64,000 bases of DNA from a virus. Every line of letters begins with the position of its first letter. Position 1 is the first letter of the stretch. The stretch lies in the IMG/VR virus record IMGVR_UViG_3300045988_112022, one strand, 5' to 3'. The position numbers were made by a program, and so were the translations under genes. A model generated the notes under the pieces. That model saw nothing but the letters and a program-made list of their open reading frames with translations, had not been told where the DNA came from and did no database searches. This document shows, one piece after another, positions 2,761 to 30,424 of the stretch.

Positions 2761-2788
2761 TTCGCGAGAAAAACAGCTTGTTTTATGA
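2761..2788 (+). promoter_or_regulatory. Conserved phage element copy (TTCGCG-N15-TTTATGA), putative promoter
   Basis: TTCGCGAGAAAAACAGCTTGTTTTATGA upstream of CDS 2815. Confidence 0.5.
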
Positions 2789-2814
2789 CAAAGAAAAAGA
2801 AAGGAGAATTACTT

Positions 2815-3018
2815 ATGAATTACGAACTTTTATTAGATGCAGTCAAAGAGGTGTCCAAGGACAAATTGAAGGAGATTAGCTTCAAACTTGATGATCAGAC
2901 CATCCAGGCAATTAAAGAGATGGATCTGAGCGAAGACGAGAAGCGACAGCTCATTCTGATGTCCAAGGACAGAGCCTTCTTTGACATGCTGCTGATAAAT
3001 GCACTCAAAGAAGAGTAA
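2815..3018 (+). CDS. Hypothetical small protein
   Basis: GAAAGGAG RBS before ATG 2815; 67 aa. Confidence 0.6.
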   Translation: MNYELLLDAVKEVSKDKLKEISFKLDDQTIQAIKEMDLSEDEKRQLILMSKDRAFFDMLLINALKEE

Positions 3019-3041
3019 CATCTTTCAGCTAAAGAAAGTAA

Positions 3042-3084
3042 GGGGACGGCTGTTAGCGGACAGCTATCCTCTTATTTTTCTTTT
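3042..3084. terminator. Bidirectional hairpin between convergent genes
   Basis: GGGGACGGCTGT-TAGCG-GACAGCTATCCTCT followed by a T-rich run; A-rich on the other side. Confidence 0.5.
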
Positions 3085-3259
3085 AACGATTAATAACCTT
3101 ACCAATCAGGTCTGCCATTTTCTCATGTGATGATCTACGATCGGCAATAGCTTCGTCAAGGGTGTTATTTCCATAGACTTCTTCTACCTGGTCGGCAGTC
3201 CAGATATCGCCGAATTCTTCCATGGTTTCGATAAAAGTGTTGATTTCTGTTTTTGTCAT
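3083..3259 (-). CDS. Hypothetical 58-aa protein (below the ORF-track cutoff)
   Basis: Minus-strand ATG preceded by AAAGGAG. Translates MTKTEINTFIETMEEFGDIW...GKVINR. Confidence 0.5.
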   Translation of the reverse strand: MTKTEINTFIETMEEFGDIWTADQVEEVYGNNTLDEAIADRRSSHEKMADLIGKVINR

Positions 3260-3321
3260 ATTATTGAAGCTCCTTTCATGATTTGGTTGGGATAACAGTA
3301 TACCACAAACCTAGATTAGCT

Positions 3322-3609
3322 TCAATCGTCAAATCTGTCGCAGGATGTCTTGCAATTCGGATATGGAGCGCCACATGAAACGCATCCTGATGGAATATCC
3401 GGTTCAGAATCGACGAGGATACAACCATCTACAAGATTGATATACGGACCGTTATCCTCATATTCTCCAATATCGTAGACTTTACCGCAGTTGGGACATA
3501 CGAATTGATCATCTTCTAAATTCATCAATGCGCCGCAATCACAAACTGCTTCGCCCTGGAGAATAAGCTGAATAATTTCATCTTCATTTTCTGTGAAATA
3601 TCCATTCAT
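3322..3609 (-). CDS. Cys-rich zinc-ribbon protein
   Basis: GAGGAGG RBS before the internal ATG (MNGYFTEN). CDCG..CPNCG and CVSCG..CKTSC motifs. Confidence 0.6.
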   Translation of the reverse strand: MNGYFTENEDEIIQLILQGEAVCDCGALMNLEDDQFVCPNCGKVYDIGEYEDNGPYINLVDGCILVDSEPDIPSGCVSCGAPYPNCKTSCDRFDD

Positions 3610-3641
3610 AATGGTGGACCTCCTCATATATTGGTCTAATA

Positions 3642-3670
3642 ATTATACACCGTAATTCGTGGAATTTACA
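3642..3670 (-). promoter_or_regulatory. SigmaA-type promoter for the minus-strand pair 3609-3083
   Basis: Minus strand reads TGTAAA-17 nt-TATAAT with a TG extended -10. Confidence 0.45.
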
Positions 3671-3683
3671 GTCACTTTAATGA
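3656..3683 (+). promoter_or_regulatory. Conserved phage element copy (variant TTCGTG-N15-TTAATGA)
   Basis: TTCGTGGAATTTACAGTCACTTTAATGA upstream of CDS 3712. Confidence 0.45.
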
Positions 3684-3711
3684 AAAAACTTATTTCAAAG
3701 GAGAGATTGAG

Positions 3712-3939
3712 ATGAATAGAATGAAATTCGAAGGACGTATGAACTATTTTATGTTAACTGCCATCAGATCGGCTAAGAATGAAGATGGATTGATATCCGA
3801 TCGAGATTTAAAAGCTATAGAACTGATGAAGGAACTTATTGGTTATGCGGAGGAATTGAACTACGAAATTGAAAAACTCAAGAAAGAAGTGAGCAATTTG
3901 AAAAGAGAAAACGAGAGAGCAGAGAAGATAGGGGCATAG
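3712..3939 (+). CDS. Hypothetical coiled-coil protein
   Basis: AAAGGAGAG RBS; 75 aa. Confidence 0.6.
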   Translation: MNRMKFEGRMNYFMLTAIRSAKNEDGLISDRDLKAIELMKELIGYAEELNYEIEKLKKEVSNLKRENERAEKIGA

Positions 3940-3956
3940 CCTCTGTCTTTTATTTT
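3926..3956 (+). terminator. Intrinsic terminator
   Basis: AGATAGGGGC-ATA-GCCTCTGTCT stem (with G-U pairs) then TTTATTTT. Confidence 0.5.
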
Positions 3957-3982
3957 CGCGTAGAAATCAGCCCCTTTTATGA
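3955..3982 (+). promoter_or_regulatory. Conserved phage element copy (TTCGCG-N15-TTTATGA)
   Basis: TTCGCGTAGAAATCAGCCCCTTTTATGA. Confidence 0.5.
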
Positions 3983-4014
3983 GAAGAAAACATATTTTGA
4001 AGGAGGTTTTTATT

Positions 4015-4209
4015 ATGTCAATTAAAGAGAGGAAAGAAATCACAAAGATGCTCGTGAAAGTAGAAGTGGTGATATTGATGATGATATTTACAATAATATT
4101 GTTACACACAATGCCACTTGCTGGAACCGCAATGTTTGTGGTCGACTGTATTTCTATTGGCTTATATGCCAAAGCAAAATCTGAAGAATACGAGGAAGAG
4201 TTCTATTAA
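4015..4209 (+). CDS. Small membrane protein
   Basis: GGAGG RBS before ATG 4015; one hydrophobic helix. Confidence 0.55.
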   Translation: MSIKERKEITKMLVKVEVVILMMIFTIILLHTMPLAGTAMFVVDCISIGLYAKAKSEEYEEEFY

Positions 4210-4447
4210 GAGCTCTTTCTTTTATTTTTATCCTAGATTAGACAAAGCGCTATTCTAGGTTAGAATCCGTACGCAGGTTACTGGAAACAAAGTTATATTT
4301 GTAATGTGAAAAATTCCCGGGGAGGGATTTTCATAAAAACAATTCAAAGGAGGGTACGACCGGTGGATGTATCATTTTTATTGGGAACAATTTTGGGAGC
4401 AGCATTAACCAATATCGTTTATGTGATCATATTGAGGAGGAAATAGT

Positions 4448-4672
4448 ATGGTATATTTAGTTTTTCTTGGCGGAGTGTTTATAGGTGCTATTATCACTTG
4501 CGTTATTCATCAGAAAACATCTGCACATGGATATTTTACCGTTACACCATATTCAGATGATGAGATTGCAGTTGATGAGGGATTCTATTCCGTGAAAGTA
4601 TCCTTGCCAAAAGATGTAAACCTCGTGAATAAAGGCAGGATTATCTTACATAATTCCAATTCGCACAAATAA
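4448..4672 (+). CDS. Small protein with N-terminal TM helix
   Basis: GAGGAGG RBS; MVYLVFLGGVFIGAIITCVI. Confidence 0.6.
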   Translation: MVYLVFLGGVFIGAIITCVIHQKTSAHGYFTVTPYSDDEIAVDEGFYSVKVSLPKDVNLVNKGRIILHNSNSHK

Positions 4673-4722
4673 CAGCTTCTTTTATGGAAACGTATTAATT
4701 TATTTTTAAGGAGGATTTCAAA

Positions 4723-5109: not shown

Positions 5110-5122
5110 AATACGGATAAGC

Positions 5123-5160: not shown

Positions 5161-5161
5161 G

Positions 5162-5190: not shown

Positions 5191-5210
5191 TAATTGGTAC
5201 ATTCAACTCT

Positions 5211-6134: not shown

Positions 6135-6173
6135 AAGAGCTTATATCAAAATGGTATAGGCTCTTTTTTTTTT
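6135..6173 (+). terminator. Intrinsic terminator
   Basis: AAGAGCTTATA...TATAGGCTCT stem followed by T10. Confidence 0.6.
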
Positions 6174-6175
6174 AA

Positions 6176-6203
6176 GTCGCTAAAATTACAAGCTCTTTAA
6201 TGA
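6176..6203 (+). promoter_or_regulatory. Conserved phage element copy (variant GTCGCT-N15-TTAATGA)
   Basis: GTCGCTAAAATTACAAGCTCTTTAATGA. Confidence 0.45.
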
Positions 6204-6227: not shown

Positions 6228-6470
6228 ATGAATAACGAGAAAATTGTAAAACATATACATTGGGGAGCGAATAACAATTACCAAAATAACTATGTTATAG
6301 TTTTATGGAGTGATTATACGTGGGAACAGTTCAATCTTGGACCAGAGCCATATATCAAAGGTAAAACTATGAAACAGCATTATAATTTTGGTAAAGCAAT
6401 AACCAGTAAAATGACCAAAAACCAATTCATAGAATATTTGAATCAAAAGAAAGCAGAGATTGAGTCCTAA
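6228..6470 (+). CDS. Hypothetical protein
   Basis: GAAAGGAG RBS before ATG 6228. The C-terminal ..IES-stop is encoded by the 5' arm and loop of the conserved hairpin. Confidence 0.6.
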   Translation: MNNEKIVKHIHWGANNNYQNNYVIVLWSDYTWEQFNLGPEPYIKGKTMKQHYNFGKAITSKMTKNQFIEYLNQKKAEIES

Positions 6471-6492
6471 CAAGGGCTCTTTCTTTTTTTTT
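6462..6492 (+). terminator. Conserved hairpin terminator GAGTCC-TAACAA-GGGCTC + T-run
   Basis: 6-bp stem (one G-U pair), 6-nt loop containing the stop codon, then TTTCTTTTTTTTT. Confidence 0.55.
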
Positions 6493-6505: not shown

Positions 6506-6865
6506 ATGAGATATCATTACGAAAAACCGGATCACTATACATCAATGTACGGACGAACTTATATTTGTGATCATCTGGTATACAGTCATTGTACATTATA
6601 TAAAATCGGAGAAAAGGGTCTGGCTGTTATTCAGCAGCGTTATATTCCGGAAACAAAGTCAACATGTTGGACCGAAATTGATCCATGGCTGGTTGATGCT
6701 TTATATTTACATGAAGGTTTCAAAAAGTTCTTCGATGATCGTGCTGGAAAGTGCAACGATGGATTATATCCTACAACCAGTATCAGGCAGATTATGTGGG
6801 CTTTGAAGATGAAACCTTTGAAACGAGAACGCTGGGAAACCTGTTTCGATCGCCGGAGTATTTAG
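6506..6865 (+). CDS. Hypothetical protein
   Basis: 119-aa ORF; weak RBS. Confidence 0.55.
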   Translation: MRYHYEKPDHYTSMYGRTYICDHLVYSHCTLYKIGEKGLAVIQQRYIPETKSTCWTEIDPWLVDALYLHEGFKKFFDDRAGKCNDGLYPTTSIRQIMWALKMKPLKRERWETCFDRRSI

Positions 6866-6889
6866 CGAAAATTACATTCTGTATTATGA
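6862..6889 (+). promoter_or_regulatory. Conserved phage element copy (variant TTAGCG-N15-ATTATGA)
   Basis: TTAGCGAAAATTACATTCTGTATTATGA running into AAGGAG. Confidence 0.45.
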
Positions 6890-6904: not shown

Positions 6905-7156
6905 ATGCGAGAATTGAATAAAAATGCGTGGGTATTTGAAATGACCGTTGATGAATCATGCAAAAATATCGATGATATCGAGGATATTATTAGACAATCT
7001 AATGGTACTATTATAGGATTAAGAGGTAGAAACCATGTAATAGAGTTTCTGATAGTTCTCGATTTATTGGCCATGGATGATTTGATTACAGATATGGTAG
7101 TGCGATATCCAGGCAGAACAAGATTCAGAAAAGCAAAAGCAATAAGCTTCAAATGA
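6905..7156 (+). CDS. Hypothetical protein
   Basis: AAGGAG RBS; 83 aa. Confidence 0.6.
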   Translation: MRELNKNAWVFEMTVDESCKNIDDIEDIIRQSNGTIIGLRGRNHVIEFLIVLDLLAMDDLITDMVVRYPGRTRFRKAKAISFK

Positions 7157-7182
7157 GGGTCCTAACAAGGGCTCTTTCTTTT
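7157..7182 (+). terminator. Conserved hairpin terminator (GGGTCC-TAACAA-GGGCTC)
   Basis: Hairpin followed by TTTCTTTT, abutting the next TTCGCG box. Confidence 0.55.
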
Positions 7183-7208
7183 CGCGCGAATTACAGATGC
7201 TATTATGA
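7181..7208 (+). promoter_or_regulatory. Conserved phage element copy (TTCGCG-N15-ATTATGA)
   Basis: TTCGCGCGAATTACAGATGCTATTATGA followed by AAGGAG. The TTCGCGCGAA box is a perfect palindrome. Confidence 0.5.
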
Positions 7209-7491: not shown

Positions 7492-7517
7492 GAGCCCTAG
7501 TTAGGACTCTTTCTTTT
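7492..7517 (+). terminator. Conserved hairpin in inverted orientation (GAGCCC-TAGTTA-GGACTC)
   Basis: Its stem arms are the reverse complement of the GAGTCC/GGGCTC arms of the other copies; the TAGTTA loop inverts to TAACTA, one base off their TAACAA. Followed by TTTCTTTT. Confidence 0.5.
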
Positions 7518-7543
7518 CGCGCGAATCACAGGTGCTATTATGA
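7516..7543 (+). promoter_or_regulatory. Conserved phage element copy (TTCGCG-N15-ATTATGA)
   Basis: TTCGCGCGAATCACAGGTGCTATTATGA. Confidence 0.5.
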
Positions 7544-7572: not shown

Positions 7573-7773
7573 ATGAGCATTGTGACTAAAGTAGCAAAAA
7601 TGAGACTTAATTATCACGCAACTATGTTGGACATTTGCAATGTTGCTAATCAATTAGGAATATTGAAAGATGAGAAAGCGGAAGAGGTGATGAAAAAGCA
7701 CACATTTAAATGCTTTGACGCAATGGAACATATGGGATTGGATCCATATGGAGCAATGAAAGAAGAGTCCTAA
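7573..7773 (+). CDS. Hypothetical protein
   Basis: GGAGGTG RBS before ATG 7573; ends ..KEES-stop inside the conserved hairpin. Confidence 0.55.
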   Translation: MSIVTKVAKMRLNYHATMLDICNVANQLGILKDEKAEEVMKKHTFKCFDAMEHMGLDPYGAMKEES

Positions 7774-7792
7774 CCAGGGCTCTTTCTTTTTT
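7765..7792 (+). terminator. Conserved hairpin terminator (GAGTCC-TAACCA-GGGCTC)
   Basis: Hairpin followed by TTTCTTTTTT. Confidence 0.55.
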
Positions 7793-7818
7793 CGCGTTGA
7801 AAACAATTTCTCTAATGG
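7791..7818 (+). promoter_or_regulatory. Conserved phage element copy (TTCGCG-N15-CTAATGG)
   Basis: TTCGCGTTGAAAACAATTTCTCTAATGG. Confidence 0.5.
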
Positions 7819-8019: not shown

Positions 8020-8034
8020 TTAGTAAGCGGAGTC

Positions 8035-8054
8035 AGCAATGGCTCTTGCTTTTT
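8035..8054 (+). terminator. Small hairpin terminator
   Basis: AGCAA-TGGCTC-TTGCT followed by TTTT. Confidence 0.4.
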
Positions 8055-8080
8055 CGCGTATCTTACAACTCCTATAATGA
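8053..8080 (+). promoter_or_regulatory. Conserved phage element copy (TTCGCG-N15-ATAATGA)
   Basis: TTCGCGTATCTTACAACTCCTATAATGA; contains TATAAT. Confidence 0.5.
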
Positions 8081-8408: not shown

Positions 8409-8436
8409 TTCGCGAAATATACGCGGACTATTATGA
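8409..8436 (+). promoter_or_regulatory. Conserved phage element copy (TTCGCG-N15-ATTATGA)
   Basis: TTCGCGAAATATACGCGGACTATTATGA. Confidence 0.5.
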
Positions 8437-8703: not shown

Positions 8704-8729
8704 GAGTCCTAACCAGGGCTCTTTCTTTT
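8704..8729 (+). terminator. Conserved hairpin terminator (GAGTCC-TAACCA-GGGCTC)
   Basis: Hairpin followed by TTTCTTTT. Confidence 0.55.
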
Positions 8730-8755
8730 CGCGAAAAAACCATCTTCTTTAATGA
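8728..8755 (+). promoter_or_regulatory. Conserved phage element copy (TTCGCG-N15-TTAATGA)
   Basis: TTCGCGAAAAAACCATCTTCTTTAATGA. It is followed by an ORF-free interval rather than an RBS. Confidence 0.5.
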
Positions 8756-8885
8756 GAGAAAGAAGCGGCAGTAGTGAGTCGTGGGAGAATGTCCCACCAG
8801 CTGAGATGCTGTCACATAAGAACTAAGACTGGGCGACTCCCAGGCAGGAAATGAACTGTATAAGACCACACTTTCTTTTTTTTTC
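8756..8885 (+). ncRNA. Candidate small structured RNA (promoter-like element to T-run, no RBS or ORF)
   Basis: About 130 nt containing perfect hairpins GTGGGA-GAATG-TCCCAC, CAGC-TGAGAT-GCTG and CTGGG-CGACT-CCCAG, ending in CTTTCTTTTTTTTT. No + strand ORF. Confidence 0.3.
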
Positions 8886-8910
8886 GTTAAATTTACAACC
8901 CATATTATGA
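8883..8910 (+). promoter_or_regulatory. Conserved phage element copy (variant TTCGTT-N15-ATTATGA)
   Basis: TTCGTTAAATTTACAACCCATATTATGA followed by AGAAAGGAG. Confidence 0.45.
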
Positions 8911-9005: not shown

Positions 9006-9118
9006 AACAGCCATGTAAGGGTTGCAAATATAGATATCCTCTAAACAATAAATTAAGGTGCTGCATATTCCCATCAATACCGAGAGATTGGTCATTCTTG
9101 GAAAGAAACGAGTCCTAA
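9002..9118 (+). CDS. 38-aa Cys-rich mini-ORF
   Basis: MKQPCKGCKYRYPLNNKLRCCIFPSIPRDWSFLERNES; ends ..ES-stop in the conserved hairpin like its neighbours. Confidence 0.3.
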   Translation: MKQPCKGCKYRYPLNNKLRCCIFPSIPRDWSFLERNES

Positions 9119-9135
9119 CAAGGGCTCTTTCTTTT
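9110..9135 (+). terminator. Conserved hairpin terminator (GAGTCC-TAACAA-GGGCTC)
   Basis: Hairpin followed by TTTCTTTT. Confidence 0.55.
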
Positions 9136-9163
9136 CTCGCGAAAAAATCAACTCCTTTAATGA
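9136..9163 (+). promoter_or_regulatory. Conserved phage element copy (variant CTCGCG-N15-TTAATGA)
   Basis: CTCGCGAAAAAATCAACTCCTTTAATGA. Confidence 0.5.
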
Positions 9164-9266
9164 GAGAAAGGCGGTTGACTATACCGCATAAACGCTAAGG
9201 GCGAGAAGGAATTAAAGACTTAGCACTTTCTCTTTTACTTTTTACACACGCGAAAGGAGAAATCGT
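9164..9266 (+). promoter_or_regulatory. Structured ~100-nt leader upstream of paralog A (possible attenuator)
   Basis: Starts GAGAGAAAGGCGG, like the 8756 unit. Hairpins GCGGT-TGACTAT-ACCGC and GCTAAG...CTTAGC are followed by a T-rich tract before the RBS. Confidence 0.3.
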
Positions 9267-10040
9267 ATGAACGTAAAAATGACACTCAGAAGAAACTCAC
9301 CAAAGCTCCTGGCAATACTCGCTGCGATGGGGACGGTATCTACGGCATTCGCAACGGCGAGAGCCACACCAAAAGCACTGTTACTTATTCAGGAGGCGGA
9401 AGCTCAAAAAGGAGAGGATTTGACTGCACTTGAAAAAGTTAAAGTAGCTGCAGTGCCTTATGTTCCAGCAGTGTTACTTGGCTCGGCTACTATTGCGTGC
9501 ATATTTGGAGTTCAGATGTTGAATCGAAAGACTCAATCCTCTATGACCAGTGCATACGCTTTGTTGGATCAGGGCTTTAAAGACTATCGGCGAAAACTTA
9601 AGGAATTATACGGTGACGAGGCAGATAAGAAAGTTATCGAAGCTCTGGCGGTAGAGAAGTCTCAAACAGTATATATCAATGCCTCCTATTTGGATGGACC
9701 TTGTGATTTAGCCCTAGAAGAAAATTCATCTAAACCGGTTCTCTGGTACGATGAATATTCAAAGAGATTCTTCACAGCCAGTCTCGAACAGGTTCTCATG
9801 GCAGAATACCACCTGAACCGAAATTATATTCTCAGAGGAGAAGCTGTGATAAACGAACTGTATGAATTCCTCGGCCTGGAGCCTACTGATTGGGGTGCTG
9901 AAGCCGGATGGGCTCCGATGGATGAAGGAATGTTCTGGATCGAATTCAACCACATTCCGGCAAAACTTGATGATGGTTCCGTCTTTTATATTATTGAAAT
10001 GCCGTTCGAACCAATTCTGAACTATGATGAATATTACTGA
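9267..10040 (+). CDS. Two-TM phage protein, paralog A of a three-member family
   Basis: AAAGGAG RBS. N-terminal SPKLLAILAAMG..ATPKAL helix, a second helix, then a YALLDQGFKDYRRKL amphipathic segment. Confidence 0.75.
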   Translation: MNVKMTLRRNSPKLLAILAAMGTVSTAFATARATPKALLLIQEAEAQKGEDLTALEKVKVAAVPYVPAVLLGSATIACIFGVQMLNRKTQSSMTSAYALLDQGFKDYRRKLKELYGDEADKKVIEALAVEKSQTVYINASYLDGPCDLALEENSSKPVLWYDEYSKRFFTASLEQVLMAEYHLNRNYILRGEAVINELYEFLGLEPTDWGAEAGWAPMDEGMFWIEFNHIPAKLDDGSVFYIIEMPFEPILNYDEYY

Positions 10041-10068
10041 CTCGCGAGAATTCCAACGACTTTAACGG
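10041..10068 (+). promoter_or_regulatory. Conserved phage element copy (variant CTCGCG-N15-TTAACGG)
   Basis: CTCGCGAGAATTCCAACGACTTTAACGG followed by AAAGGAGG. Confidence 0.45.
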
Positions 10069-10260: not shown

Positions 10261-10292
10261 AACAAAACTATGTTCATTTGAAAGGAGATATC

Positions 10293-11099
10293 ATGAACAA
10301 ATCTGTAACAAAATTCATTAAAACTGTGAAACGAGGATTCGGAAAACGAAGTCCTGAGATTCTGCTCGGGATTGGCATTGCGAGCGGCATTACCGCGACT
10401 GTCTTAGCGGTTAAAGCTACCCCGAAAGCATTGGAACTTCTGACTGAAAAGAGATATGAGAAATATGGCGATACGTTGAAAGAAGATGATTCGTACGATG
10501 ATATGCCAGAACTCAAGCCCGTTGAAGTAGTCAAAACCACATGGAAATGTTACATTCCAGCAGCTATCAGTGGTGCTGCATCCATCGCTTGTCTGCTCGG
10601 ATCTCATTCGGTACATGCGAAAAGAAATGCCGCACTGGCTACAGCCTATAAATTATCCGAAACGGCACTGAACGAATACCGTGAAAAAGTTGTAGAGGAA
10701 ATCGGTGAAGAGAAAGAGAAAGTCATCCGAGATAAAGTTTCCCAGAAACATCTGGACGAGACGCCTGTATCCAAAAACGAAGTGATCATCACAGGGACTG
10801 GTAAGCAGCTTTGCTATGACGGCATTTCCGGACGATATTTTGAATCAGACATTCAGACAATCCGCGCTGCAGTCAACAAGATCAATGAAACCATGGTGTA
10901 CGAGATGTATGCGGCATTAAATGATTTCTATAATGAAATCGGTTTGAGTAATACAGACATGGGTGATGAACTTGGCTGGAATCTTGATGATGGTTTACTC
11001 GAAATAAGTTACGGAGCCATGGTCGCGGATGACGGTAGACCTTGCATTACTCTGGACTATCATATTGCGCCGAGATACGACTTCTCAAAGCTTATGTAG
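10293..11099 (+). CDS. Two-TM phage protein, paralog B
   Basis: AAAGGAG RBS before ATG 10293. SPEILLGIGIASGITATVLAVKATPKALELL and NAALATAYKLSETALNEYREKV align with paralogs A and C. Confidence 0.75.
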   Translation: MNKSVTKFIKTVKRGFGKRSPEILLGIGIASGITATVLAVKATPKALELLTEKRYEKYGDTLKEDDSYDDMPELKPVEVVKTTWKCYIPAAISGAASIACLLGSHSVHAKRNAALATAYKLSETALNEYREKVVEEIGEEKEKVIRDKVSQKHLDETPVSKNEVIITGTGKQLCYDGISGRYFESDIQTIRAAVNKINETMVYEMYAALNDFYNEIGLSNTDMGDELGWNLDDGLLEISYGAMVADDGRPCITLDYHIAPRYDFSKLM

Positions 11100-11100: not shown

Positions 11101-11128
11101 TTCGCGAAAAATACATATTGTTTAATGG
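11101..11128 (+). promoter_or_regulatory. Conserved phage element copy (TTCGCG-N15-TTAATGG)
   Basis: TTCGCGAAAAATACATATTGTTTAATGG. Confidence 0.5.
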
Positions 11129-11472: not shown

Positions 11473-11492
11473 GATTTATATTCTCTAACAGG

Positions 11493-11528
11493 GGAGTACC
11501 TATAACAAGGTATTCCTCTTTTTGTTTT
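11493..11528 (+). terminator. Intrinsic terminator
   Basis: GGAGTACC-TATAACAA-GGTATTCC followed by TCTTTTTGTTTT. Confidence 0.5.
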
Positions 11529-11547
11529 CAACGGAAAGGAGCGTATC

Positions 11548-11739
11548 ATGCCCAGGTATATTTACAAAGGTCCGGTCATGGAATTCAACACTCTTCTTGC
11601 TGATATTTGGGAGGGAGAGACTGTTGCTCCTTCTGAGAAGAAAGCAAGGAGTAATTTAACATATCAGTTTAAGAAAAGAAATAACCGTATTGCGGGAACA
11701 CGCATAACGTTACCCGGAAAAATTATGATGGTTGATTAA
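11548..11739 (+). CDS. Hypothetical protein
   Basis: AAAGGAG RBS; 63 aa. Confidence 0.6.
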   Translation: MPRYIYKGPVMEFNTLLADIWEGETVAPSEKKARSNLTYQFKKRNNRIAGTRITLPGKIMMVD

Positions 11740-11752
11740 GAGAGGAGAACTC

Positions 11753-12343
11753 ATGGAAGATTATAAATCAAATTCCCATAAAGCAAAAGCTGAAGCTAAA
11801 GAAGCTGCTGAGAAAAAAGTAAATAAGGTCGTTACCGGTAATGTTAAGAGAAAAAAGAAGAGTGAGGTAAGCAAATTCAAAGATGTATTTATCTCCGAGG
11901 ATGTATCTAATGTCAAAACTTATATTTTTCTTGACGTGCTGGTACCGGCAATCAAGAAAGCTGTCTCAGATATTGTGAAAGACGGAATCGATATGATGTT
12001 ATATGGAGACAAACGAAGCAGCAGTCGTGGCTCATCCAGTTATGTATCATATAGATCATATTCCGATAACACGAGTCGTAACTCAAGAAGGTCGATAAGA
12101 GCCAGCTACGATTTTGATGATGTGGTGTTCGATACCCGAGGCGAGGCTGATGAAGTGTTATCCAGCATGGACGAATTGATGGATACTTACGGAGTTGTCA
12201 GTGTTGCTGATATGTATGATTTATGTGGCATGACTTGTAACTACACAGACAATAAATACGGTTGGAAGAGCCTTGCCAGAGCTGATATCTTAAGTGTTCG
12301 GGACGGTTACATGATCAAACTTCCAAAGGCAGAACCGATTTAA
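11753..12343 (+). CDS. Hypothetical protein with basic N-terminus and Ser/Arg-rich centre
   Basis: AGAGGAG RBS before ATG 11753. Confidence 0.65.
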   Translation: MEDYKSNSHKAKAEAKEAAEKKVNKVVTGNVKRKKKSEVSKFKDVFISEDVSNVKTYIFLDVLVPAIKKAVSDIVKDGIDMMLYGDKRSSSRGSSSYVSYRSYSDNTSRNSRRSIRASYDFDDVVFDTRGEADEVLSSMDELMDTYGVVSVADMYDLCGMTCNYTDNKYGWKSLARADILSVRDGYMIKLPKAEPI

Positions 12344-12352
12344 GGAGAAGAT

Positions 12353-12694
12353 ATGGAAGATCTAAAAGAGATTATTTTAAAAACTGAATACAGTAATAAA
12401 TTCGATGAGATTAGAAAAAACCTCGTCGTGCAGTCATATTTCAAATACGGGAAAGCTTCAAGAAATTTCGTAGCAGGGTATGTGGATGCGATTGGATCGC
12501 TTAAAAAGTGTATTCAGAAATTTGAAGAAACAGGTAACTTAGAATATCTGGCAGACGCTGCAAACTATTGCATGTTCAGATACATGTATCCACAAACAGG
12601 AGAATATTTCAAGCATACTGATTCCAACGAATCTGCCGGAATTGATGGTATGTCAGTAAAAGAAATCGAAGAGTTTAAAAAGGAGAACGAATAA
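12353..12694 (+). CDS. Hypothetical protein
   Basis: AAGGAG RBS; 113 aa. Confidence 0.65.
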   Translation: MEDLKEIILKTEYSNKFDEIRKNLVVQSYFKYGKASRNFVAGYVDAIGSLKKCIQKFEETGNLEYLADAANYCMFRYMYPQTGEYFKHTDSNESAGIDGMSVKEIEEFKKENE

Positions 12695-13626
12695 TGAAAA
12701 AATTAGCATTTATGAATACTATTTCCAGATCAGCACACAGAATGGCATTTAAGCTTCAGAAACACAGCCCGGAAATCCTTGTGGTGGCTGGAGTAATCGG
12801 CGCGGTGGCAAGTGCAGTGATGGCTTGCAAGGCCACAACTAAACTGGGCGATATTTTAGACGACTCCAGAGATAAAATTGATTCCATTCATGATGTGATT
12901 GAGAATCCGGATAAGGTTAATGCGGAGTATACACAGGAAGACGGAAACAAAGATCTTGCTATTGTATATACGCAGACCGCTCTGAAGGTTGCTAAAGTTT
13001 ATGCTCCTGCGGTTATTCTCGGAGGATTATCTATCACGGCTATTCTTACGTCTAACAATATTCTCAGAAAGAGGAACATTGCACTGGCTGCAGCTTACAC
13101 AGCAGTCGACAAAAGCTTCAAAGAATATCGTGGAAGAGTCGTTGAAAGATTCGGAAAGGAATTGGATAAAGAGCTCCGTTACAACATCAAAGCTAAGGAA
13201 GTGGAAGAGACTGTTACCGACGAAAAAGGTAACGAAAAAACTGTGAAAAAGACTGTCGACGTAGTAGATCCAAATGCCATCAGTGAATTTGCGAAATTCT
13301 TCGATGATGGATGCATTGGATGGACCAAAGATCCGGAACTCAATATGATTTTCTTACGCCAGCAGGAAGCAGCGGCAACTAAACGTCTGGAAGATCGTGG
13401 ACATTTATTCTTGAATGAAGTATACGATATGCTTGGCATCCCACACACAAGAGCAGGTCAGATTGTAGGATGGATCTATGATAAAAAGAATCCGATCGGT
13501 GATAACTATGTCGATTTCGGCATTTACGATACTAGCAAAGAAGCGAATCGTAACTTTGTGAACGGATACGAAAGAACAATTCTGCTTGATTTCAATGTTG
13601 ATGGAAACATCCTTGATCTAATGTGA
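12694..13626 (+). CDS. Two-TM phage protein, paralog C
   Basis: SPEILVVAGVIGAVASAVMACKATTKL, NIALAAAYTAVDKSFKEYRGRV and a C-terminal GW..LDF segment align with paralogs A and B. Confidence 0.75.
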   Translation: MKKLAFMNTISRSAHRMAFKLQKHSPEILVVAGVIGAVASAVMACKATTKLGDILDDSRDKIDSIHDVIENPDKVNAEYTQEDGNKDLAIVYTQTALKVAKVYAPAVILGGLSITAILTSNNILRKRNIALAAAYTAVDKSFKEYRGRVVERFGKELDKELRYNIKAKEVEETVTDEKGNEKTVKKTVDVVDPNAISEFAKFFDDGCIGWTKDPELNMIFLRQQEAAATKRLEDRGHLFLNEVYDMLGIPHTRAGQIVGWIYDKKNPIGDNYVDFGIYDTSKEANRNFVNGYERTILLDFNVDGNILDLM

Positions 13627-13703
13627 ATGACAGGACTCAATAGTATTGGGTCGGGGAATACCTATAGGGATATTTACGATCGCGTTTGGTGAAAGGAGAA
13701 ATC

Positions 13704-13955
13704 ATGACAGGTAGAGAACTTATCATATTCATTCTGGAAAATAATTTGGAAAACGTGTCCATATTCGATGGTGATACGCTTCCTGGTCTTATGACCCTGG
13801 ACGAAGCTGCTGTCAAATGGCATAGTGGCAGAAATACTTTAAAAGCTCTTTTCGAAATGGGAAAAATACCCGGAGTGATAATCGACGAAAAGATTTATAT
13901 TCATAAGAGCGTAGAGAACCCATTTTCAAAGGAAGGGAAAGACCATGATAAATAA
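13704..13955 (+). CDS. Possible HTH DNA-binding protein
   Basis: AAAGGAG RBS before ATG 13704. MTLDEAAVKWHSGRNTLKALFEMGKIPG resembles an excisionase/MerR-type HTH. Confidence 0.55.
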   Translation: MTGRELIIFILENNLENVSIFDGDTLPGLMTLDEAAVKWHSGRNTLKALFEMGKIPGVIIDEKIYIHKSVENPFSKEGKDHDK

Positions 13956-14499: not shown

Positions 14500-14510
14500 G
14501 AGAAGAATGG

Positions 14511-15062: not shown

Positions 15063-15087
15063 ATCTTGAAAGGAGAAGCATAGTGTA

Positions 15088-18000: not shown

Positions 18001-19311
18001 CCAGGCATGTATGGAAACGTAGCGTTGCTGGATATCGCTTCAATGCACCCACACAGCACCATTGCTGAATGTCTGTTTGGAGTCAGATACACAACAGCAT
18101 ATAGAGAAATTGTCGAGGGACGTGTATCTATCAAACATGAGGCCTGGGATATTGTCAATGATATGCTTGGCGGTAAACTTACGAAACATATCGAGAGGGT
18201 TAAGAATGGCGAGTTGACATCCGAAGATCTTGCTAACGCACTCAAGACTGCAATCAACTCGGTATATGGCCTTACATCAGCTAACTTCGACAATCCGTTC
18301 AGGGATATTCGTAACAAAGATAATATCGTTGCCAAACGTGGCGCGCTGTTTATGGTGGATCTTAAACATGAGGTACAGAAGAGAGGATTTACTGTTGCTC
18401 ATATCAAGACAGATTCCATTAAGATTCCGGATGCTACACCGGAGATTATCAAATTCGTCATGGACTTTGGTAAGCGGTATGGCTACACATTTGAGCATGA
18501 GGCTACTTACGATCGAATGTGTCTCGTAAATAATGCGGTTTATATTGCTAAGTATAAAGACCCAGATGAGTGTGTGGCTATGTATGGATATGCTCCAGGC
18601 GATAATAAGAAACATAAGAATAATCCATGGACAGCTACCGGCAAGCAGTTTGCGGTTCCTTATGTATTCAAGACTTGTTTCAGCCGGGAACCAGTAACAA
18701 TCAATGATATGAGAGAAACTTTCTCAGTGAAATCGGCTTTATATTTGGATATGAATGAGAAATTACCGGACGTATCTGAATACGAGAAGAAACTTGAGAA
18801 GTTGGAATCCGACTACAAGAAAGGCAAAATCTCAGATACCACGTTTGAACCGGAAGCTGGCGTACTGCAGGAGCTGATCAATGATGGTCATGACCGTAAA
18901 TTCGTTGGTAAAGTCGGAGAATTCTGTCCGGTTAAACCTGGCAAGGGCGGTGGCATTCTCGTCAGAGAGCAGAATGGTAAATTCTACGCGGCTACCGGCA
19001 CTACCGGATTCAGATGGCTTGAGGCAGAAATGCTGTTGAAGAAAACCGCAGAGATGGCGACGATTATCGATCCGGATACTGGAAAAGAGAAAAAGATATC
19101 TGGAGCAGAGCTGATTACTGGCAACGACGGTATTATCGACCGATCATATTATGACAAACTCGTTAATGACGCCATCGAATCTATTTCTAAATATGGTGAT
19201 TATGAATGGTTTATATCTGAAGATCCGTATATTCCTAAAGAAAAACCATTACCGGATTTTATGAATATTCCAGAAGGCACCGATGAAGAGGTAGAGTTAC
19301 CTTGGAATTGA
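15088..19311 (+). CDS. Fusion replicase: SF3 (D5-like) helicase + archaeo-eukaryotic primase-like domain + family-B DNA polymerase with 3'-5' exonuclease
   Basis: Walker A GSAGTGKST (~15631). AEP-like VIDFDIKDE (~16606) and SGAGIHLHY (~16708). ExoI FYDCEVF, ExoII GFNCRRYDNHML, ExoIII YCDNDVLAT. PolB motif A LLDIASMHPHS, motif B KTAINSVYG (~18244), motif C KTDS (~18406). Confidence 0.85.
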   Translation: MIDFMKISTRQVKKGVTEIFPKFVLKKSSDLMIRGGDFYAVWNEDTGLWSTDEEDVINMIDAALYEYTKKQEEHAIDELNTKYMWDSNSGSIDAWHKYCQKQMRDNYHPLDEKIIFGDTKTTKKDYASRTLSYPLRECDISGYERLMSTLYSPEERKKIEWAIGAVIEGDSKNIQKFMVLYGSAGTGKSTVLNIIQQLFEGYYSVFDAKALGSANNSFALEAFKANPLIAIQHDGDLSKIEDNTRLNSLVSHELMTVNEKFKSTYANRFNAFLFMGTNKPVKITDSKSGLLRRLIDVTPSGNKLDQREYSDCMDKIPFELPGIAYHCHQVYLANKHVYDSYVPTLMMGATNDFYNFMIDSFSVFKKNDGTTLKTAWEMYKVYCDETKVPYPYSQRVFKEELRNYFWNFDEEFDSESQARNVYSGFRLDKFEKDMRSEKKDDGEKTKGTIEFMEGISSKFDILAGDYLAQYANEKETPTKPWDVVTTRLHDINVHKLHYVKVPENHIVIDFDIKDESGNKSFEKNLAAASKWPATYAELSKSGAGIHLHYIYDGDSTLLNRLYDKDIEIKVFTGKSSLRRKLTKCNDLPIAHISSGLPLKEEGKKVINIEGFKNEQSLRTTIKRNLEKEYHHDTRSSVDFINKLLNDAYASDKAYDVSDMRNAVYSFAAQSTNQADYCLRLVSKMKFKSEEPAVALTNDEKPLVFYDCEVFPNLFLVNWKVQGEGKPIVRLINPRPQDIEELIKFRLVGFNCRRYDNHMLYACMMGYTNEQLYDLSQKIVNTKKGDSRKVLFGEAYNISYTDIYDFASAGNKKSLKKLEIEMGIHHQELGLPWDKPVPKELWQKVAEYCDNDVLATEAAWDYLKSDFIAREILADLAGLTVNDTTNTLTQRFIFGNNKHPQNEFQYRNLAEPVYELDPEVKAFLEKSCREMMAEPHGEACSLLPYFPGYKYENGVSTYRGEEVGEGGYVYAEPGMYGNVALLDIASMHPHSTIAECLFGVRYTTAYREIVEGRVSIKHEAWDIVNDMLGGKLTKHIERVKNGELTSEDLANALKTAINSVYGLTSANFDNPFRDIRNKDNIVAKRGALFMVDLKHEVQKRGFTVAHIKTDSIKIPDATPEIIKFVMDFGKRYGYTFEHEATYDRMCLVNNAVYIAKYKDPDECVAMYGYAPGDNKKHKNNPWTATGKQFAVPYVFKTCFSREPVTINDMRETFSVKSALYLDMNEKLPDVSEYEKKLEKLESDYKKGKISDTTFEPEAGVLQELINDGHDRKFVGKVGEFCPVKPGKGGGILVREQNGKFYAATGTTGFRWLEAEMLLKKTAEMATIIDPDTGKEKKISGAELITGNDGIIDRSYYDKLVNDAIESISKYGDYEWFISEDPYIPKEKPLPDFMNIPEGTDEEVELPWN
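17599..17661 (+). repeat. Copy 1 of a 63-nt repeat (PolB ExoIII motif coding segment)
   Basis: Matches 20638-20700 at 56 of 63 positions by hand alignment. Confidence 0.8.
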
Positions 19312-19313: not shown

Positions 19314-19341
19314 TTCGCGGAGAAATCCTTTCCTGTTATGA
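19314..19341 (+). promoter_or_regulatory. Conserved phage element copy (TTCGCG-N15-GTTATGA)
   Basis: TTCGCGGAGAAATCCTTTCCTGTTATGA followed by AAGGAG. Confidence 0.5.
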
Positions 19342-22556: not shown

Positions 22557-22725
22557 ATTCAAAGATGCTGTTATAGGTATTCCTAAAATTAAAAATGGTT
22601 CGCGGATCAGAATTGGCAGAGTCAGAACCTTGAATATTAACGTAGATCATCACTTCAACTGGTTTCAGAAGAGAATGATTAAATGGTGTTTCGGTTTTAC
22701 TGTGGAGGATTACAGTGAGGAATGA
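22543..22725 (+). CDS. Hypothetical protein
   Basis: 60-aa ORF; no clear RBS. Confidence 0.35.
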   Translation: METNEFKDAVIGIPKIKNGSRIRIGRVRTLNINVDHHFNWFQKRMIKWCFGFTVEDYSEE

Positions 22726-22751
22726 CGCGAAAATCACAACTCCTTTAATGA
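22724..22751 (+). promoter_or_regulatory. Conserved phage element copy (variant GACGCG-N15-TTAATGA)
   Basis: GACGCGAAAATCACAACTCCTTTAATGA followed by AAAGGAGG. Confidence 0.45.
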
Positions 22752-26836: not shown

Positions 26837-26864
26837 TTCGCTAAAAATACAGTTCCTTTAATGA
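26837..26864 (+). promoter_or_regulatory. Conserved phage element copy (variant TTCGCT-N15-TTAATGA)
   Basis: TTCGCTAAAAATACAGTTCCTTTAATGA followed by AAGGAG. Confidence 0.45.
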
Positions 26865-28209: not shown

Positions 28210-28352
28210 TATTTTTAATAAAAATTTGTTTAGCAGTATTCATGCTTATCGATCTGCTCTTGGCATGGCGGTACGCAAACGATCGGGATATCTGTAAAGT
28301 TGTTATATTCTGTTCTGCTATTATATGCAGCATGTTGAGTCTTTGTAGATGA
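28206..28352 (+). CDS. 48-aa membrane peptide (below the ORF-track cutoff)
   Basis: ATGA overlap with the upstream stop. MIFLIKICLAVFMLIDLLLAW... Confidence 0.4.
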   Translation: MIFLIKICLAVFMLIDLLLAWRYANDRDICKVVIFCSAIICSMLSLCR

Positions 28353-28365
28353 GGAGAGAATCAAA

Positions 28366-28524
28366 ATGTTTGCTTTGGTATTCGGAGTGTTATTTGCGGT
28401 GTCGTTTTTAGGATTTGAGATAACCTCCAGGAGTAAATACAGCGCTGCGTCACATCTCATTTGGGGTGTGGCGTTTATTATTTTCACGGTATGTTATTAC
28501 CTGCGCATTTTGCTACACAATTGA
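28366..28524 (+). CDS. 52-aa two-TM membrane peptide (below the ORF-track cutoff)
   Basis: GAGGAGAG RBS. MFALVFGVLFAVSFLGF...LIWGVAFIIFTVCYY. Confidence 0.45.
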   Translation: MFALVFGVLFAVSFLGFEITSRSKYSAASHLIWGVAFIIFTVCYYLRILLHN

Positions 28525-28780
28525 AACATCTGATTTACCGATGTGGGTTAAATTTTTATTATTAAAATGAGGAGGAATTGTGTATGAGATGTAACCGAAG
28601 AAGAGTAATGAATACGATACCGTCGAGTATGGACAAGAGCATCCTGAGTGGGCTGAAAAGATTATTGAGAAATTTTCAAAAGAGAATTAAGTTCGAAAGG
28701 TGGGACGAATGACAGTCACATCAACTATTTTAGCTTTAATTATCATAGCGTGGGTTTTATTTAATTGGAGGAAAATCGAA

Positions 28781-29329
28781 ATGAAAAAATCAAATTGGAA
28801 ATTAGTTCTTATTATTGTTGCAGGGATTCTTGCAGTTGTCATGACAGGCGTATTCGGAGTGCAGAGTTCACAAAATAAAGCTTTTTCACTGGAGGAACAG
28901 GTGAATACAGCTGATTCAGACATCAAAGTTCAGGAAAAAAGACGTGTGGATCTGATTTATAACCTTGCAGATTGTGTAAAGCAGTATGATAAACACGAAG
29001 CTGATACACTTACCGCTATCGTAGAAGGGCGAGGCTCCACTGGAGATATTGAAAATGTTACCACTGCGATTGCAGCTGTAAGCGAAGCTTATCCGGAATT
29101 AAAATCAGATGAAAATTATAAGGAACTGATGAATGAACTCTCTATTACAGAAAATCTGATTGCAGAATATCGTAGCAATTATAATAAACAGATAAAATTG
29201 TACAGACGTTATATAAGAAAATTCCCTACGCGAATCTTTTTGGATATTCTTGGATATGAGGTTCATGAGTATGCATATTTAGATTACGAAGCTCCTGTCG
29301 ATGCTCCACAGAATCTGTTCGTGGAATAA
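28781..29329 (+). CDS. lemA: LemA family membrane protein
   Basis: GGAGG RBS before ATG 28781. N-terminal TM helix, then EEQVNTADSDIKVQEKRRVDLIYNL..AYPELKSDENYKELMNEL..ENLIAEYRSNYNK. Confidence 0.75.
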   Translation: MKKSNWKLVLIIVAGILAVVMTGVFGVQSSQNKAFSLEEQVNTADSDIKVQEKRRVDLIYNLADCVKQYDKHEADTLTAIVEGRGSTGDIENVTTAIAAVSEAYPELKSDENYKELMNELSITENLIAEYRSNYNKQIKLYRRYIRKFPTRIFLDILGYEVHEYAYLDYEAPVDAPQNLFVE

Positions 29330-29333
29330 GCTT

Positions 29334-30092
29334 ATGAATAAATGGAACGGATTTGATTTCGGAGACTTTAAAATCACAAAAAGAGAAATCTTAGCAAGTA
29401 TATCTATCATTGCGGTTCTGTTACTTATTGGCTTTATAATTTCTGGTAAAATCTCAGATCATGCGATGGACAAAAACGAAAAATACAATAAAGCAGTAAA
29501 GATTAAAGAACAGGATCTGTTTGAATATGGTATGCGGACTGATATTGGAAACGCATTTATCTATGGCGATTTGGAAGCTGTCGACACTGTTACTTATCCG
29601 GAGATTGGTGGAAAGTATATGTATGTGCAAAAGGTCGAAGAACATTACACGAGACACACTCGTAAGGTGGCTCACACAAAGACTGTGAATGGAAAATCTC
29701 ACACATATTATACAACTGAGGTTTATTGGTCATGGGATTATGTCGGGAGTGAGGATAAGACTTGTAAAGAGATATCTTTCTTGAAACATGTATTCTCAAG
29801 TAAGAAAATTCAATTACCGGATGATGATTATATTGATACCTTAAAAGAATCATCTAATGTACGCTTCAAATACTATGGAGTTGGTTTGAAGTACACCGGA
29901 ACGATATTTACAGAATTAAAAAATAAAACAATAAAAAATAATTCGCCATTCTATGAAAATATGACGATTGATGAGACCGTGGAACACTTAGAATCCGATT
30001 TTGCATTATGGTTATTCTGGATTTTCTGGATATTTTTAATCGGAGCATGTGTCTACGGTTTTTATTATCTTGATAATGAATGGCTTGAATAA
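29334..30092 (+). CDS. Membrane protein partner of LemA (N- and C-terminal TM helices)
   Basis: Starts 5 nt after the LemA stop. TM helices at both ends, soluble centre. Confidence 0.65.
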   Translation: MNKWNGFDFGDFKITKREILASISIIAVLLLIGFIISGKISDHAMDKNEKYNKAVKIKEQDLFEYGMRTDIGNAFIYGDLEAVDTVTYPEIGGKYMYVQKVEEHYTRHTRKVAHTKTVNGKSHTYYTTEVYWSWDYVGSEDKTCKEISFLKHVFSSKKIQLPDDDYIDTLKESSNVRFKYYGVGLKYTGTIFTELKNKTIKNNSPFYENMTIDETVEHLESDFALWLFWIFWIFLIGACVYGFYYLDNEWLE

Positions 30093-30163
30093 AAAAGAAA
30101 AGGAGATTAAAGAAATGAGCGAAGAAATAAAGAGAGAGAAAACAACAATAGAGGGAGAGTATT

Positions 30164-30388
30164 ATGAAACAGATACTTTTAGTAGACATACTTGCGATCT
30201 TGAGAAATAACGAAACAATTTATCTTTACGAGTCACCTAATCATTCAATCGGGTCATTCTATGTTGATAGTCTGCTTGCCTATCTCAGCGATGCAGCGAT
30301 ATTAAACAGGGAAGTGCAGCTTATCGAAACAACGACCTCAGGTAGTATCTGCATTACGCTTAAATCAAATAAAGAAAAGGAGAAGTAA
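30164..30388 (+). CDS. Hypothetical protein
   Basis: AGAGGGAGAG RBS; 74 aa. Confidence 0.55.
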   Translation: MKQILLVDILAILRNNETIYLYESPNHSIGSFYVDSLLAYLSDAAILNREVQLIETTTSGSICITLKSNKEKEK

Positions 30389-30396
30389 TTATTTTT

Positions 30397-30424
30397 TTCG
30401 CGTTGAAAACATCTCCTATAATGA
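30397..30424 (+). promoter_or_regulatory. Conserved phage element copy (TTCGCG-N15-ATAATGA); last copy in the window
   Basis: TTCGCGTTGAAAACATCTCCTATAATGA. It shares its TTCGCGTTGAAAACA 5' half with the copy at 7791, and its TCCTATAATGA 3' part plus the downstream GAGAAAATTAT with the copy at 8053. Confidence 0.5.

Follow-up and report, generated by a model that had tools for sequence, protein, structure and literature searches.

The 64,000-nucleotide stretch analysed here (IMG/VR record IMGVR_UViG_3300045988_112022; the whole of it is called the window) is an FP_oengus-like temperate siphophage, whose gene order matches that of Faecalibacterium phage FP_oengus gene for gene. Behind the integrase follow small plus-strand open reading frames (ORFs), three paralogous DUF6353 genes, a primase-polymerase of 1407 aa, a helicase, an exonuclease, an HNH endonuclease, a single-chain RNA polymerase (RNAP) and the structural genes. 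A near-identity DNA search with 10 kb of the window against phage records gave no match, so comparisons were made via proteins and motifs. Our subject is a short element repeated ahead of the early and middle genes (Table 1), which is probably the promoter read by the phage RNAP.

A repeated intergenic element and its relatives

The element is a signal of 28–35 bp, with 21 copies on the plus strand of the window and none on the minus strand. Aligned with their flanks, the copies read tt-TTCGCG-aaaaaTACA-n4-CT-tTAATGA-aaag; the register common to the lineages examined is TCGC-N6-(T)ACA-N5/6-TAtAATG(A/G). The initial annotation listed 19 copies, all on the plus strand and with the two boxes exactly 15 nt apart, and a pattern search recovers every one in place. 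It overlooked a good 20th copy (copy 4) and a deviant 21st, which precedes the nuclease–RNAP operon and so overturns the statement that no copy lies beyond 30.4 kb. Exact TTCGCG boxes number 11 of those 19, with 8 variants, rather than twelve and seven. AAGGAG, said to start 2–3 nt after the hexamer in about half of the copies, begins 2–5 nt past the conserved G in 7 of 20, roughly a third. Most copies do stand directly upstream of ORFs as described; copies 12 and 14 (8728 and 9136) are instead followed by structured non-coding RNA. The TCGCGA palindromes (TTCGCGAA and TTCGCGCGAA) are present in some window copies only, and relatives do not keep TTCGCGAA, carrying TCGCAg in actinophages and cacAtg in Lactococcus phage 1706.

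A position weight matrix (PWM) was built from 20 window copies and scanned across both strands of the window. Leave-one-out scores of the copies span 22–38 bits; the next plus-strand match scores 18.7 bits (at 33846), the top minus-strand score is 14.2 bits, and there is no match in the structural half. The copies thus separate cleanly, and simulations rarely give any match at all: first-order Markov sequences (100 × 64 kb) produced one of ≥18 bits in 3 of 100 runs, a chance expectation of ~0.03 copies against the 21 found. Nine or ten of the 21 copies adjoin an upstream hairpin with a T-run. Inside the element we find no conserved secondary structure and no Rfam match, and Rfam and tRNA scans of the window returned nothing. 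Judged from sequence, the element is a genuine transcription signal, strongly non-random and deeply conserved. Its behaviour supports a promoter, being strand-specific, intergenic, often placed right after a terminator and directly before a Shine-Dalgarno (SD) sequence.

Table 1 Features of the window, with coordinates and strand where given
Feature	Coordinates	Strand	Remarks
Integrase	348–1598	−	
phrog_11237 ORF ('2340 protein')	2301–2759	+	Between integrase and first element copy
Copy 1	2761–2788	+	TTCGCG-N15-TTTATGA; directly 3′ of the stop of ORF 2301–2759
Copy 2	3656–3683	+	Pattern search, PWM
Copy 3	3955–3982	+	Adjoins upstream hairpin + T-run
Copy 4	4660–4687	+	TTCGCA...TTTTATGG; absent from initial annotation
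Copy 5	6176–6203	+	Adjoins terminator 6135–6165
Copy 6	6862–6889	+	AAGGAG starts 2 nt past conserved G
Copy 7	7181–7208	+	Adjoins terminator 7155–7176; AAGGAG 2 nt past G
Copy 8	7516–7543	+	Adjoins hairpin + T-run
Copy 9	7791–7818	+	Adjoins terminator 7762–7785
Copy 10	8053–8080	+	Adjoins terminator 8029–8046
Copy 11	8409–8436	+	Adjoins hairpin + T-run
Copy 12	8728–8755	+	Adjoins terminator 8704–8721; then structured non-coding 8753–8882, no ORF
Copy 13	8883–8910	+	Pattern search, PWM
Copy 14	9136–9163	+	Adjoins terminator 9110–9127; then structured leader 9161–9245 of first DUF6353 gene
Copy 15	10041–10068	+	CTCGCG...TTAACGG
Copy 16	11101–11128	+	Pattern search, PWM
Copy 17	19314–19341	+	Directly 3′ of primase-polymerase gene
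Copy 18	22724–22751	+	Pattern search, PWM
Copy 19	26837–26864	+	Pattern search, PWM
Copy 20	30397–30424	+	Pattern search, PWM
Copy 21, deviant	33848–33875	+	CACGTG-N15-TTTTATAG; ahead of endonuclease–exonuclease–HNH–RNAP operon
Near-identical hairpins GAGTCCTAACmAGGGCTC + T-run	6462–6479, 7155–7176, 7762–7785, 8704–8721, 9110–9127		
DUF6353 paralogues	9267–10040, 10278–11099, 12694–13626		Early region, as in FP_oengus
Replication operon	11473–19311		Behind strong terminator 11490–11519
XRE/CI-type helix-turn-helix regulator	32945–33388		Own terminator 33394–33420; just upstream of RNAP-operon promoter
NUMOD-like homing-endonuclease ORF	33402–33827		Just upstream of RNAP-operon promoter
Leader hairpin + T-run	33876–33927	+	Right after copy 21; 5′ arm begins at presumed RNA 5′ end
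HNH endonuclease	34787–35332		Inserted between exonuclease and RNAP genes
Single-chain two-barrel (YonO/RdRP-like) RNAP	35329–38241	+	970 aa; GADFDGD loop; N- and C-terminal helix-turn-helix motifs
phrog_4303, small conserved ORF	38246–38518	+	Next after RNAP gene in all lineages
Non-coding stretch with G+C-rich hairpins	38519–38822		3′ of phrog_4303 ORF
Another HNH gene	39058–39546		

The element is kept in the same register in six lineages with Firmicutes or Actinobacteria hosts, whose RNAPs are ~44–45% identical and whose DNA is not alignable. FP_oengus carries 15 copies, Lactococcus phage 1706 has 12, Gordonia phage Petito 11, Arthrobacter phage GantcherGoblin 9 and Streptomyces phage Bilo 5. 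Once the matrix has been refined for each genome, the consensuses align column for column: TCGCgaaaat.aCA.ct.CTtTaATGaaAag in the window, GACGCGAAAAa..CAg..TcCTTTATGgaagg in FP_oengus, cacAtgTTTTACAta.aCTATAGTAGAaagaAgg in 1706, TCGCA..aATTACAtgtCcTATAATGAGACCCCtAtgAAAG in Petito, TCGCAgaAAt.ACAcGgctTATAATGAgA in GantcherGoblin and TCGCA.GtTTTtCctGcctTATAATGAGACCCCTAC in Bilo. All 72 refined copies in these five relatives' genomes lie on the coding strand of the early region; throughout the lineages examined the element occupies early intergenic gaps and never sits among structural genes. With the window matrix, FP_oengus gives 13–15 plus-strand sites, the first right after the homologue of ORF 2301–2759 and one ahead of the nuclease–RNAP operon. 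Arthrobacter phage Caterpillar (cluster AU) has 8 copies at 28.1–31.5 kb.

The same matrix applied to 63 IMG/VR loci (RNAP identity 52–99%) gave 143 matches on the plus strand and 0 on the minus strand, none of them downstream of the RNAP gene. Nearly every one of these loci has a match 0.9–1.1 kb upstream of the RNAP gene, of which copy 21 is the positional orthologue. The promoter-to-RNAP distance is 1.48 kb in the window, against ~1.0 kb in most relatives, because an HNH gene has been inserted there. A single 50-nt Petito copy used as query hit 227 of 50,697 phage records at 1099 places; the counts by genus (Arthrobacter 95, Gordonia 55, Streptomyces 54, Siphovirus 12, Rhodococcus 4) are the same as for the RNAP gene.

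The phage polymerase and the start of transcription

The RNAP is 970–992 aa long depending on the start chosen (35263/35329–38241). It matches PHROG 4291 'RNA-dependent RNA polymerase' (E = 0), and its DFDGD motif, at residue 541 of the 970-aa protein, is invariant in 33 homologues. Sequence searches against the PDB gave no match, and the fold search alone was informative: for an AlphaFold (AF2) model built from the 33 homologues, Foldseek ranked the plant polymerase RDR2 first among PDB entries (E 1e-4, probability 1.0; TM-scores low, ~0.24), followed by the largest subunits of Pol II and of archaeal, African swine fever virus and vaccinia RNAPs. Two conserved helix-turn-helix (HTH) motifs lie near the N terminus (~residues 75–137; ..GLGITTTQLRA.. 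and ..GMSN..I...MG.NESSVR.LL), and a C-terminal HTH resembles sigma region 4 (Pfam Sigma70_r4/HTH matches, residues 966–989). We propose that these N- and C-terminal modules would suffice to contact a tripartite site of ~30 bp. That the enzyme makes RNA from a DNA template we infer from the fused HTHs and from the precedents of YonO, phi14:2 gp66 and P23-45 gp64. By tblastn the RNAP occurs in 251 of 50,697 phage records and is very common in metagenomes; a scan of 185,579 genomes found it on four contigs of metagenome-assembled genomes (Bacilli, Ruminococcus and Porphyromonadaceae bins). Tape-measure and other virion proteins were inspected for a second RNAP, and no DxDGD signature was seen outside this gene.

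The HTH-flanked DxDGD protein was already noted by Koert et al., with no promoter proposed, as the signature gene of an actinophage supercluster (AM, AU, AW, BI, CC, DJ, EL), Lactococcus 1706-like phages and FP_oengus, with an HHpred match to PF05183 (bioRxiv 10.1101/842583). Among the ~10 protein families common to the whole group, the RNAP is the sole one with DNA-binding and transcription features, and the universal gene set holds no activator or sigma-appropriation protein (10.1101/842583). A scan of the early ORFs for sigma, MotA and AsiA domains found none, though small or very divergent factors could escape it. A recogniser specific to one host is unlikely because the hosts span two phyla. 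The initial annotation had favoured a phage-specific polymerase or sigma, or a regulator-dependent promoter, and had named both the 35329 protein and the 2340 protein (phrog_11237). Its sigma finds no counterpart in the early ORFs scanned; its polymerase gains from the element being kept in register in the Actinobacteria and Firmicutes phages that share this enzyme, which is the presumed user. The 2340 protein was rejected as a general recogniser (sigma or activator): Pfam gives no match to it even at E = 1, and it has a homologue in FP_oengus only and none in 1706, Bilo or GantcherGoblin, virulent relatives that carry the element and lack this protein. The family was found only in temperate Firmicutes relatives.

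The element misfits sigma-70 geometry, as had been argued from the window alone. There is no TTGACA-like −35 hexamer in register 16–18 bp upstream, the TTCGCG box lying 14 bp from the hexamer, and a generic sigma-70 scan shows no enrichment (72 and 71 sites versus 62.6 and 66.4 expected) and does not pick up the copies. Of the 21 window copies, 20 have the T at hexamer position 6 and only 7 the A at position 2; the corresponding region of FP_oengus reads cCTTTAT, with C/T at position 2. Were +1 of the sigma type, 6–8 nt past the hexamer, it would land within GGAG in 7 of the 20 window copies; most 1706 copies have the SD AGAAAGAAGG fused to the motif, and there too it would fall within the SD. 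In Petito and Bilo, GAGA stands directly after TATAAT and a sigma-type +1 would fall on CCC.

Copies 12 and 14, with neither an SD nor an ORF right behind them, are followed by RNAs with more structure than expected: 130 nt with a minimum free energy (MFE) of −40.5 (z −3.3) and 85 nt with an MFE of −23.4 (z −3.9), respectively. In both, a closing helix, GAGAGAAAG paired with CUUUCUC and followed by a U-run, begins exactly at the conserved G; these RNAs could be small RNAs or leader attenuators. The RNAP-operon leader likewise begins with a hairpin followed by TTTTATTTTT; 21 of 22 relatives keep the structure, with stem sequences that differ (loci L021–L085; L003, 27708 onward), and it was seen by eye also in GantcherGoblin, Petito and Bilo. 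Because the helices in the non-coding copies and in the RNAP-operon leader begin there, we locate the RNA 5′ end at the conserved G or directly beside it. Three independent sequence arguments agree on a start within the element, where the initial annotation had put it, or at its 3′ edge, and the geometry appears to be T7-type, not sigma-type. The window leader resembles an attenuator or else a 5′ stabiliser, the latter with a possible operator; its loop holds the direct repeat ATCGGTCAA twice.

Our preferred reading, to which we give a probability of about 60%, is that the element is the cognate promoter of the RNAP encoded at 35329–38241, and that the conserved G/A after TAATG is the start point of transcription. 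This phage has an RNAP of its own, the motif is long, intergenic and in one orientation, and it is found in every RNAP-bearing lineage examined, whatever the host. The built-in HTH modules would bind both the upstream box, TCGC(G/A), and the (T)ACA box, and the A/T-rich TAtAAT segment would then melt. RNA would begin at the conserved purine next to the melted segment (the G of ..TAATG, before A), giving a 5′ untranslated region of a few to ~35 nt and keeping the ribosome-binding site. Each small early gene would form its own unit, with an upstream border of hairpin and T-run often adjoining the next copy, and the deviant copy together with the leader hairpin-terminator would control the nuclease–RNAP operon as a tunable positive feedback. 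Late genes may be reached across joined genome ends just past the RNAP operon, or be left to the host enzyme, as they are in phage N4. When a second conserved motif for the late genes was sought after the RNAP gene, the only conservation was in the phrog_4303 ORF and at the probable genome end (38562–38585).

We hold a wider version only tentatively, at somewhat below even odds: that a supercluster of Actinobacteria and Firmicutes siphophages runs its early and middle programme by a sigma-independent two-barrel RNAP acting through fused HTHs. Its tripartite promoter of ~30 bp would have stayed in register since before these phages parted between host phyla, starting RNA 1–2 nt past the TATAAT-like box, and the enzyme's own operon would be gated by a deviant copy and a leader terminator.

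Several findings weigh against the RNAP as the reader of the element. Co-occurrence is confounded by common descent and fails to single it out: the primase-polymerase gene is equally distributed (253 records, with the same genus counts as the RNAP), and no relative with the replication genes and without the RNAP was found in the phage collection. The RNAP gene lies 3′ of almost all copies and is itself behind one in most lineages; its first molecules would have to come from some other source, possibly weak host use of TATAAT, read-through or virion packaging. The actinophage copies carry a perfect TATAAT, and host sigma-A could for that reason use them. Late genes are without the element, where by analogy with YonO promoters might be expected. 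Between the recognition helices and the upstream box, whose core is near-invariant except in 1706, no clear co-variation is seen, and the confidence of the structural model is only moderate (pLDDT 72.5, pTM 0.45).

Alternative explanations

As the main alternative, the element could be a promoter for the host RNAP, read by sigma-A alone on TAtAAT (as a −10-only promoter or one with an odd −35) or with a hitherto unrecognised phage activator or sigma-appropriation factor on the TCGC box, in the way of MotA/AsiA at T4 middle promoters; the phage RNAP would then be a middle gene product serving late genes from another signal, like YonO. The hexamer, perfect in actinophages, speaks for this, as does the position of the RNAP gene itself 3′ of a copy in most lineages, which fits a host-to-phage cascade. 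Intrinsic terminators of the type obeyed by host RNAP follow nearly every early gene, and YonO transcribes only late genes (PMC5467207). Conservation across phyla is not decisive here because sigma-A recognition is itself conserved across phyla. We nevertheless consider this explanation unlikely. The −35 is missing and the upstream box is misplaced; neither 14 of the 21 window copies nor the FP_oengus consensus has the position-2 A; and starts of the sigma type would destroy the SD of many copies or fall on CCC. No activator, sigma or AsiA/MotA-like protein is common to all lineages, and no second conserved motif was detected ahead of late genes. A temperate phage would moreover have to repress ~20 strong host promoters, yet virulent relatives keep the upstream box too.

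A site for some other protein (a repressor, replication or packaging factor), or a signal acting at the RNA level in processing or translation, with no promoter function, is improbable. The palindromes in some window copies and the XRE-type regulator encoded upstream of the RNAP operon would suit an operator, but the palindrome is lost in relatives and virulent phages retain the element. An RNA-level role is hard to square with the terminators that adjoin 9–10 copies, so that upstream transcripts mostly end before the element, and with the lack of conserved structure or an Rfam match. The copies moreover range across 31 kb and in every case stand upstream of genes, on the same strand as these.

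In the cluster AU phage Giantsbane, a 32-bp intergenic repeat at 28.5–30 kb, in six or more copies around small genes, has been read as a recombination boundary sequence, and gene rearrangements are reported for cluster AU (10.1101/2020.01.10.891226). That repeat is almost certainly the same element, the Caterpillar copies lying in that region; it was described for one cluster only and was not tied to transcription, a polymerase or the phages of other hosts. In the literature on YonO promoters, phage 1706, actinophage clusters and two-barrel phage RNAPs, we found the motif described only as this '32 bp repeat'. Rearrangements confined to the repeat-flanked cassette (10.1101/2020.01.10.891226) would suit a boundary sequence that shuffles small early genes, with promoter activity absent or incidental. 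In the window, four of the five near-identical GAGTCCTAACmAGGGCTC hairpins (not that at 6462) are fused to the next element copy, making homologous terminator–promoter cassettes of ~60 bp around small ORFs that are possible substrates for gene shuffling. We regard recombination as the element's primary function as very improbable, since homology needs no fixed register, strand, SD distance or position-specific conservation, and base-for-base preservation between phyla is unexpected where flanks have diverged past alignment. In phage T4, PeSL (promoter-early stem-loop) cassettes of terminator hairpin and promoter flank small accessory early genes and can mediate shuffling. Repeated terminator and promoter modules beside small accessory genes are likewise found in the window, and shuffling is better viewed as a by-product of such regulatory cassettes: a plausible side effect of fusion to repeated terminators, not the primary function.

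Known systems and neighbouring features

Read as the cognate promoter of the phage RNAP, the element resembles the promoters of T7, T3 and SP6 in being a long, contiguous phage motif in one orientation that ends near +1 past a TATA-like segment, often close to an SD, in many copies and alongside a phage-encoded RNAP. It differs in that their enzymes are of the T7-like right-hand type rather than two-barrel, and in being longer (~28–35 bp) and tripartite. The 1706 version CACTATAG is partly identical to the T7 core, which we take as coincidence. With sigma-70/sigma-A promoters it shares a TAtAAT-like hexamer and an upstream box; it departs from them in lacking TTGACA, in its 14 bp spacing, in the key A being absent from most Firmicutes-phage copies and in a start that would lie 1–2 rather than 6–8 nt past the hexamer. 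T4 MotA-dependent middle promoters have a box ~12–14 bp upstream of a −10-like hexamer that replaces the −35, and need host holoenzyme plus the activator. The box replacing a −35 is the likeness to these, as the cassettes beside small early genes are to PeSL; unlike them, the window phage has no MotA/AsiA-like or other shared activator that we could find, and its geometry misfits host holoenzyme.

The closest functional precedent is that of Thermus phage P23-45, which has two single-chain two-barrel RNAPs, each with its own mapped promoter motif: AT-rich for the virion RNAP gp96 and GC-rich for the non-virion RNAP gp64 (10.1101/2022.12.01.518664). Alike are the single-polypeptide two-barrel enzyme, the dedicated motif upstream of early genes and the way in which motif tracks enzyme among relatives. 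The two differ in enzyme sequence (no detectable similarity), in the N- and C-terminal HTHs of the window RNAP, in motif sequence and in number, P23-45 having two RNAPs, one of them injected, against the one RNAP gene seen in the window; the P23-45 promoters are experimentally mapped, those of the window predicted. YonO, of the Bacillus prophage SPbeta and the most closely studied single-chain relative, is likewise a single-chain RNAP of a temperate Firmicutes siphophage, distant from multisubunit RNAPs and with a DxDGD loop; it transcribes one late operon, from upstream of yonK, and its promoter sequence was left undefined (PMC5467207). The window element, by contrast, precedes ~20 early and middle units and no late genes. 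Kinship between the two enzymes is taken from literature and fold, not from direct comparison.

Phage RNAPs with promoters of their own are known already (T7, N4, P23-45), and what is new is the link between this enzyme family and this motif. The family is known from sequence alone, is usually annotated 'helix-turn-helix DNA binding protein' and has so far had no promoter proposed for it. The element offers a testable consensus for ~250 phages with sequenced genomes and for thousands of relatives from metagenomes; many of the element-bearing phages are easily grown (Lactococcus 1706; Gordonia, Arthrobacter and Streptomyces SEA-PHAGES isolates). If the reading is right, it would explain the early transcription layout of these phages, correct a widespread mis-annotation and exemplify sigma-free DNA recognition by a minimal two-barrel enzyme with promoter recognition fused in. 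It would also supply a compact, host-independent and portable orthogonal polymerase–promoter pair, which may work in high-GC and low-GC Gram-positive hosts.

The replication operon runs from ~11.5 kb to the end of the primase-polymerase gene. It lacks an element copy of its own and lies beyond a strong terminator, and read-through from copy 16 seems to be required for its expression. DUF6353 homologues are found also in the Arthrobacter, Streptomyces and Lactococcus relatives. The XRE/CI-type regulator is a candidate lysogeny repressor that would need to silence only the polymerase. On the other side of the RNAP gene, the product of phrog_4303 is a possible cofactor of the RNAP. The non-coding stretch of 300 nt beyond it contains a segment (38562–38585, CCTCCCTGCATCGCGCCGGTCTTC) kept in 10 of 17 relatives, and many IMG/VR contigs stop 250–450 bp past the RNAP gene. 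This stretch is probably the physical genome end (cos); only in the prophage, or once the ends have been joined, would the RNAP operon therefore adjoin the structural genes.

The closest RNAP in GenBank (61% identity) is on MT835495.1, an unverified 69.8-kb faecal phage scaffold with two element copies upstream of the RNAP gene (605, 1193); in its last 25 kb, the expected early region, no element copies were found, and possibly its early module has diverged or the scaffold is chimeric. Some IMG/VR relatives carry a tRNA gene (Met or Ile-tat), absent from the window, right after the leader hairpin and before the nuclease–RNAP operon (L021 9089–9166, L031 9033–9108, L036 9053–9128). In Lactococcus 1706 the RNAP gene has its own 448-bp upstream region instead of a copy. 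Virulent relatives have a non-coding region of 230–450 bp upstream of the nuclease/RNAP genes (1706, 3635–4082; Petito, 28690–28917; Bilo, 38817–39202; GantcherGoblin, 45670–45980) with short direct repeats, for example CTATCACGAAAAAACTTCGGGA, TTAATACACGGTG four times, CAGATTTCGCATG twice and GCCCACT/AGTGGGCA; these iteron-like repeats may mark a replication origin or regulatory region.

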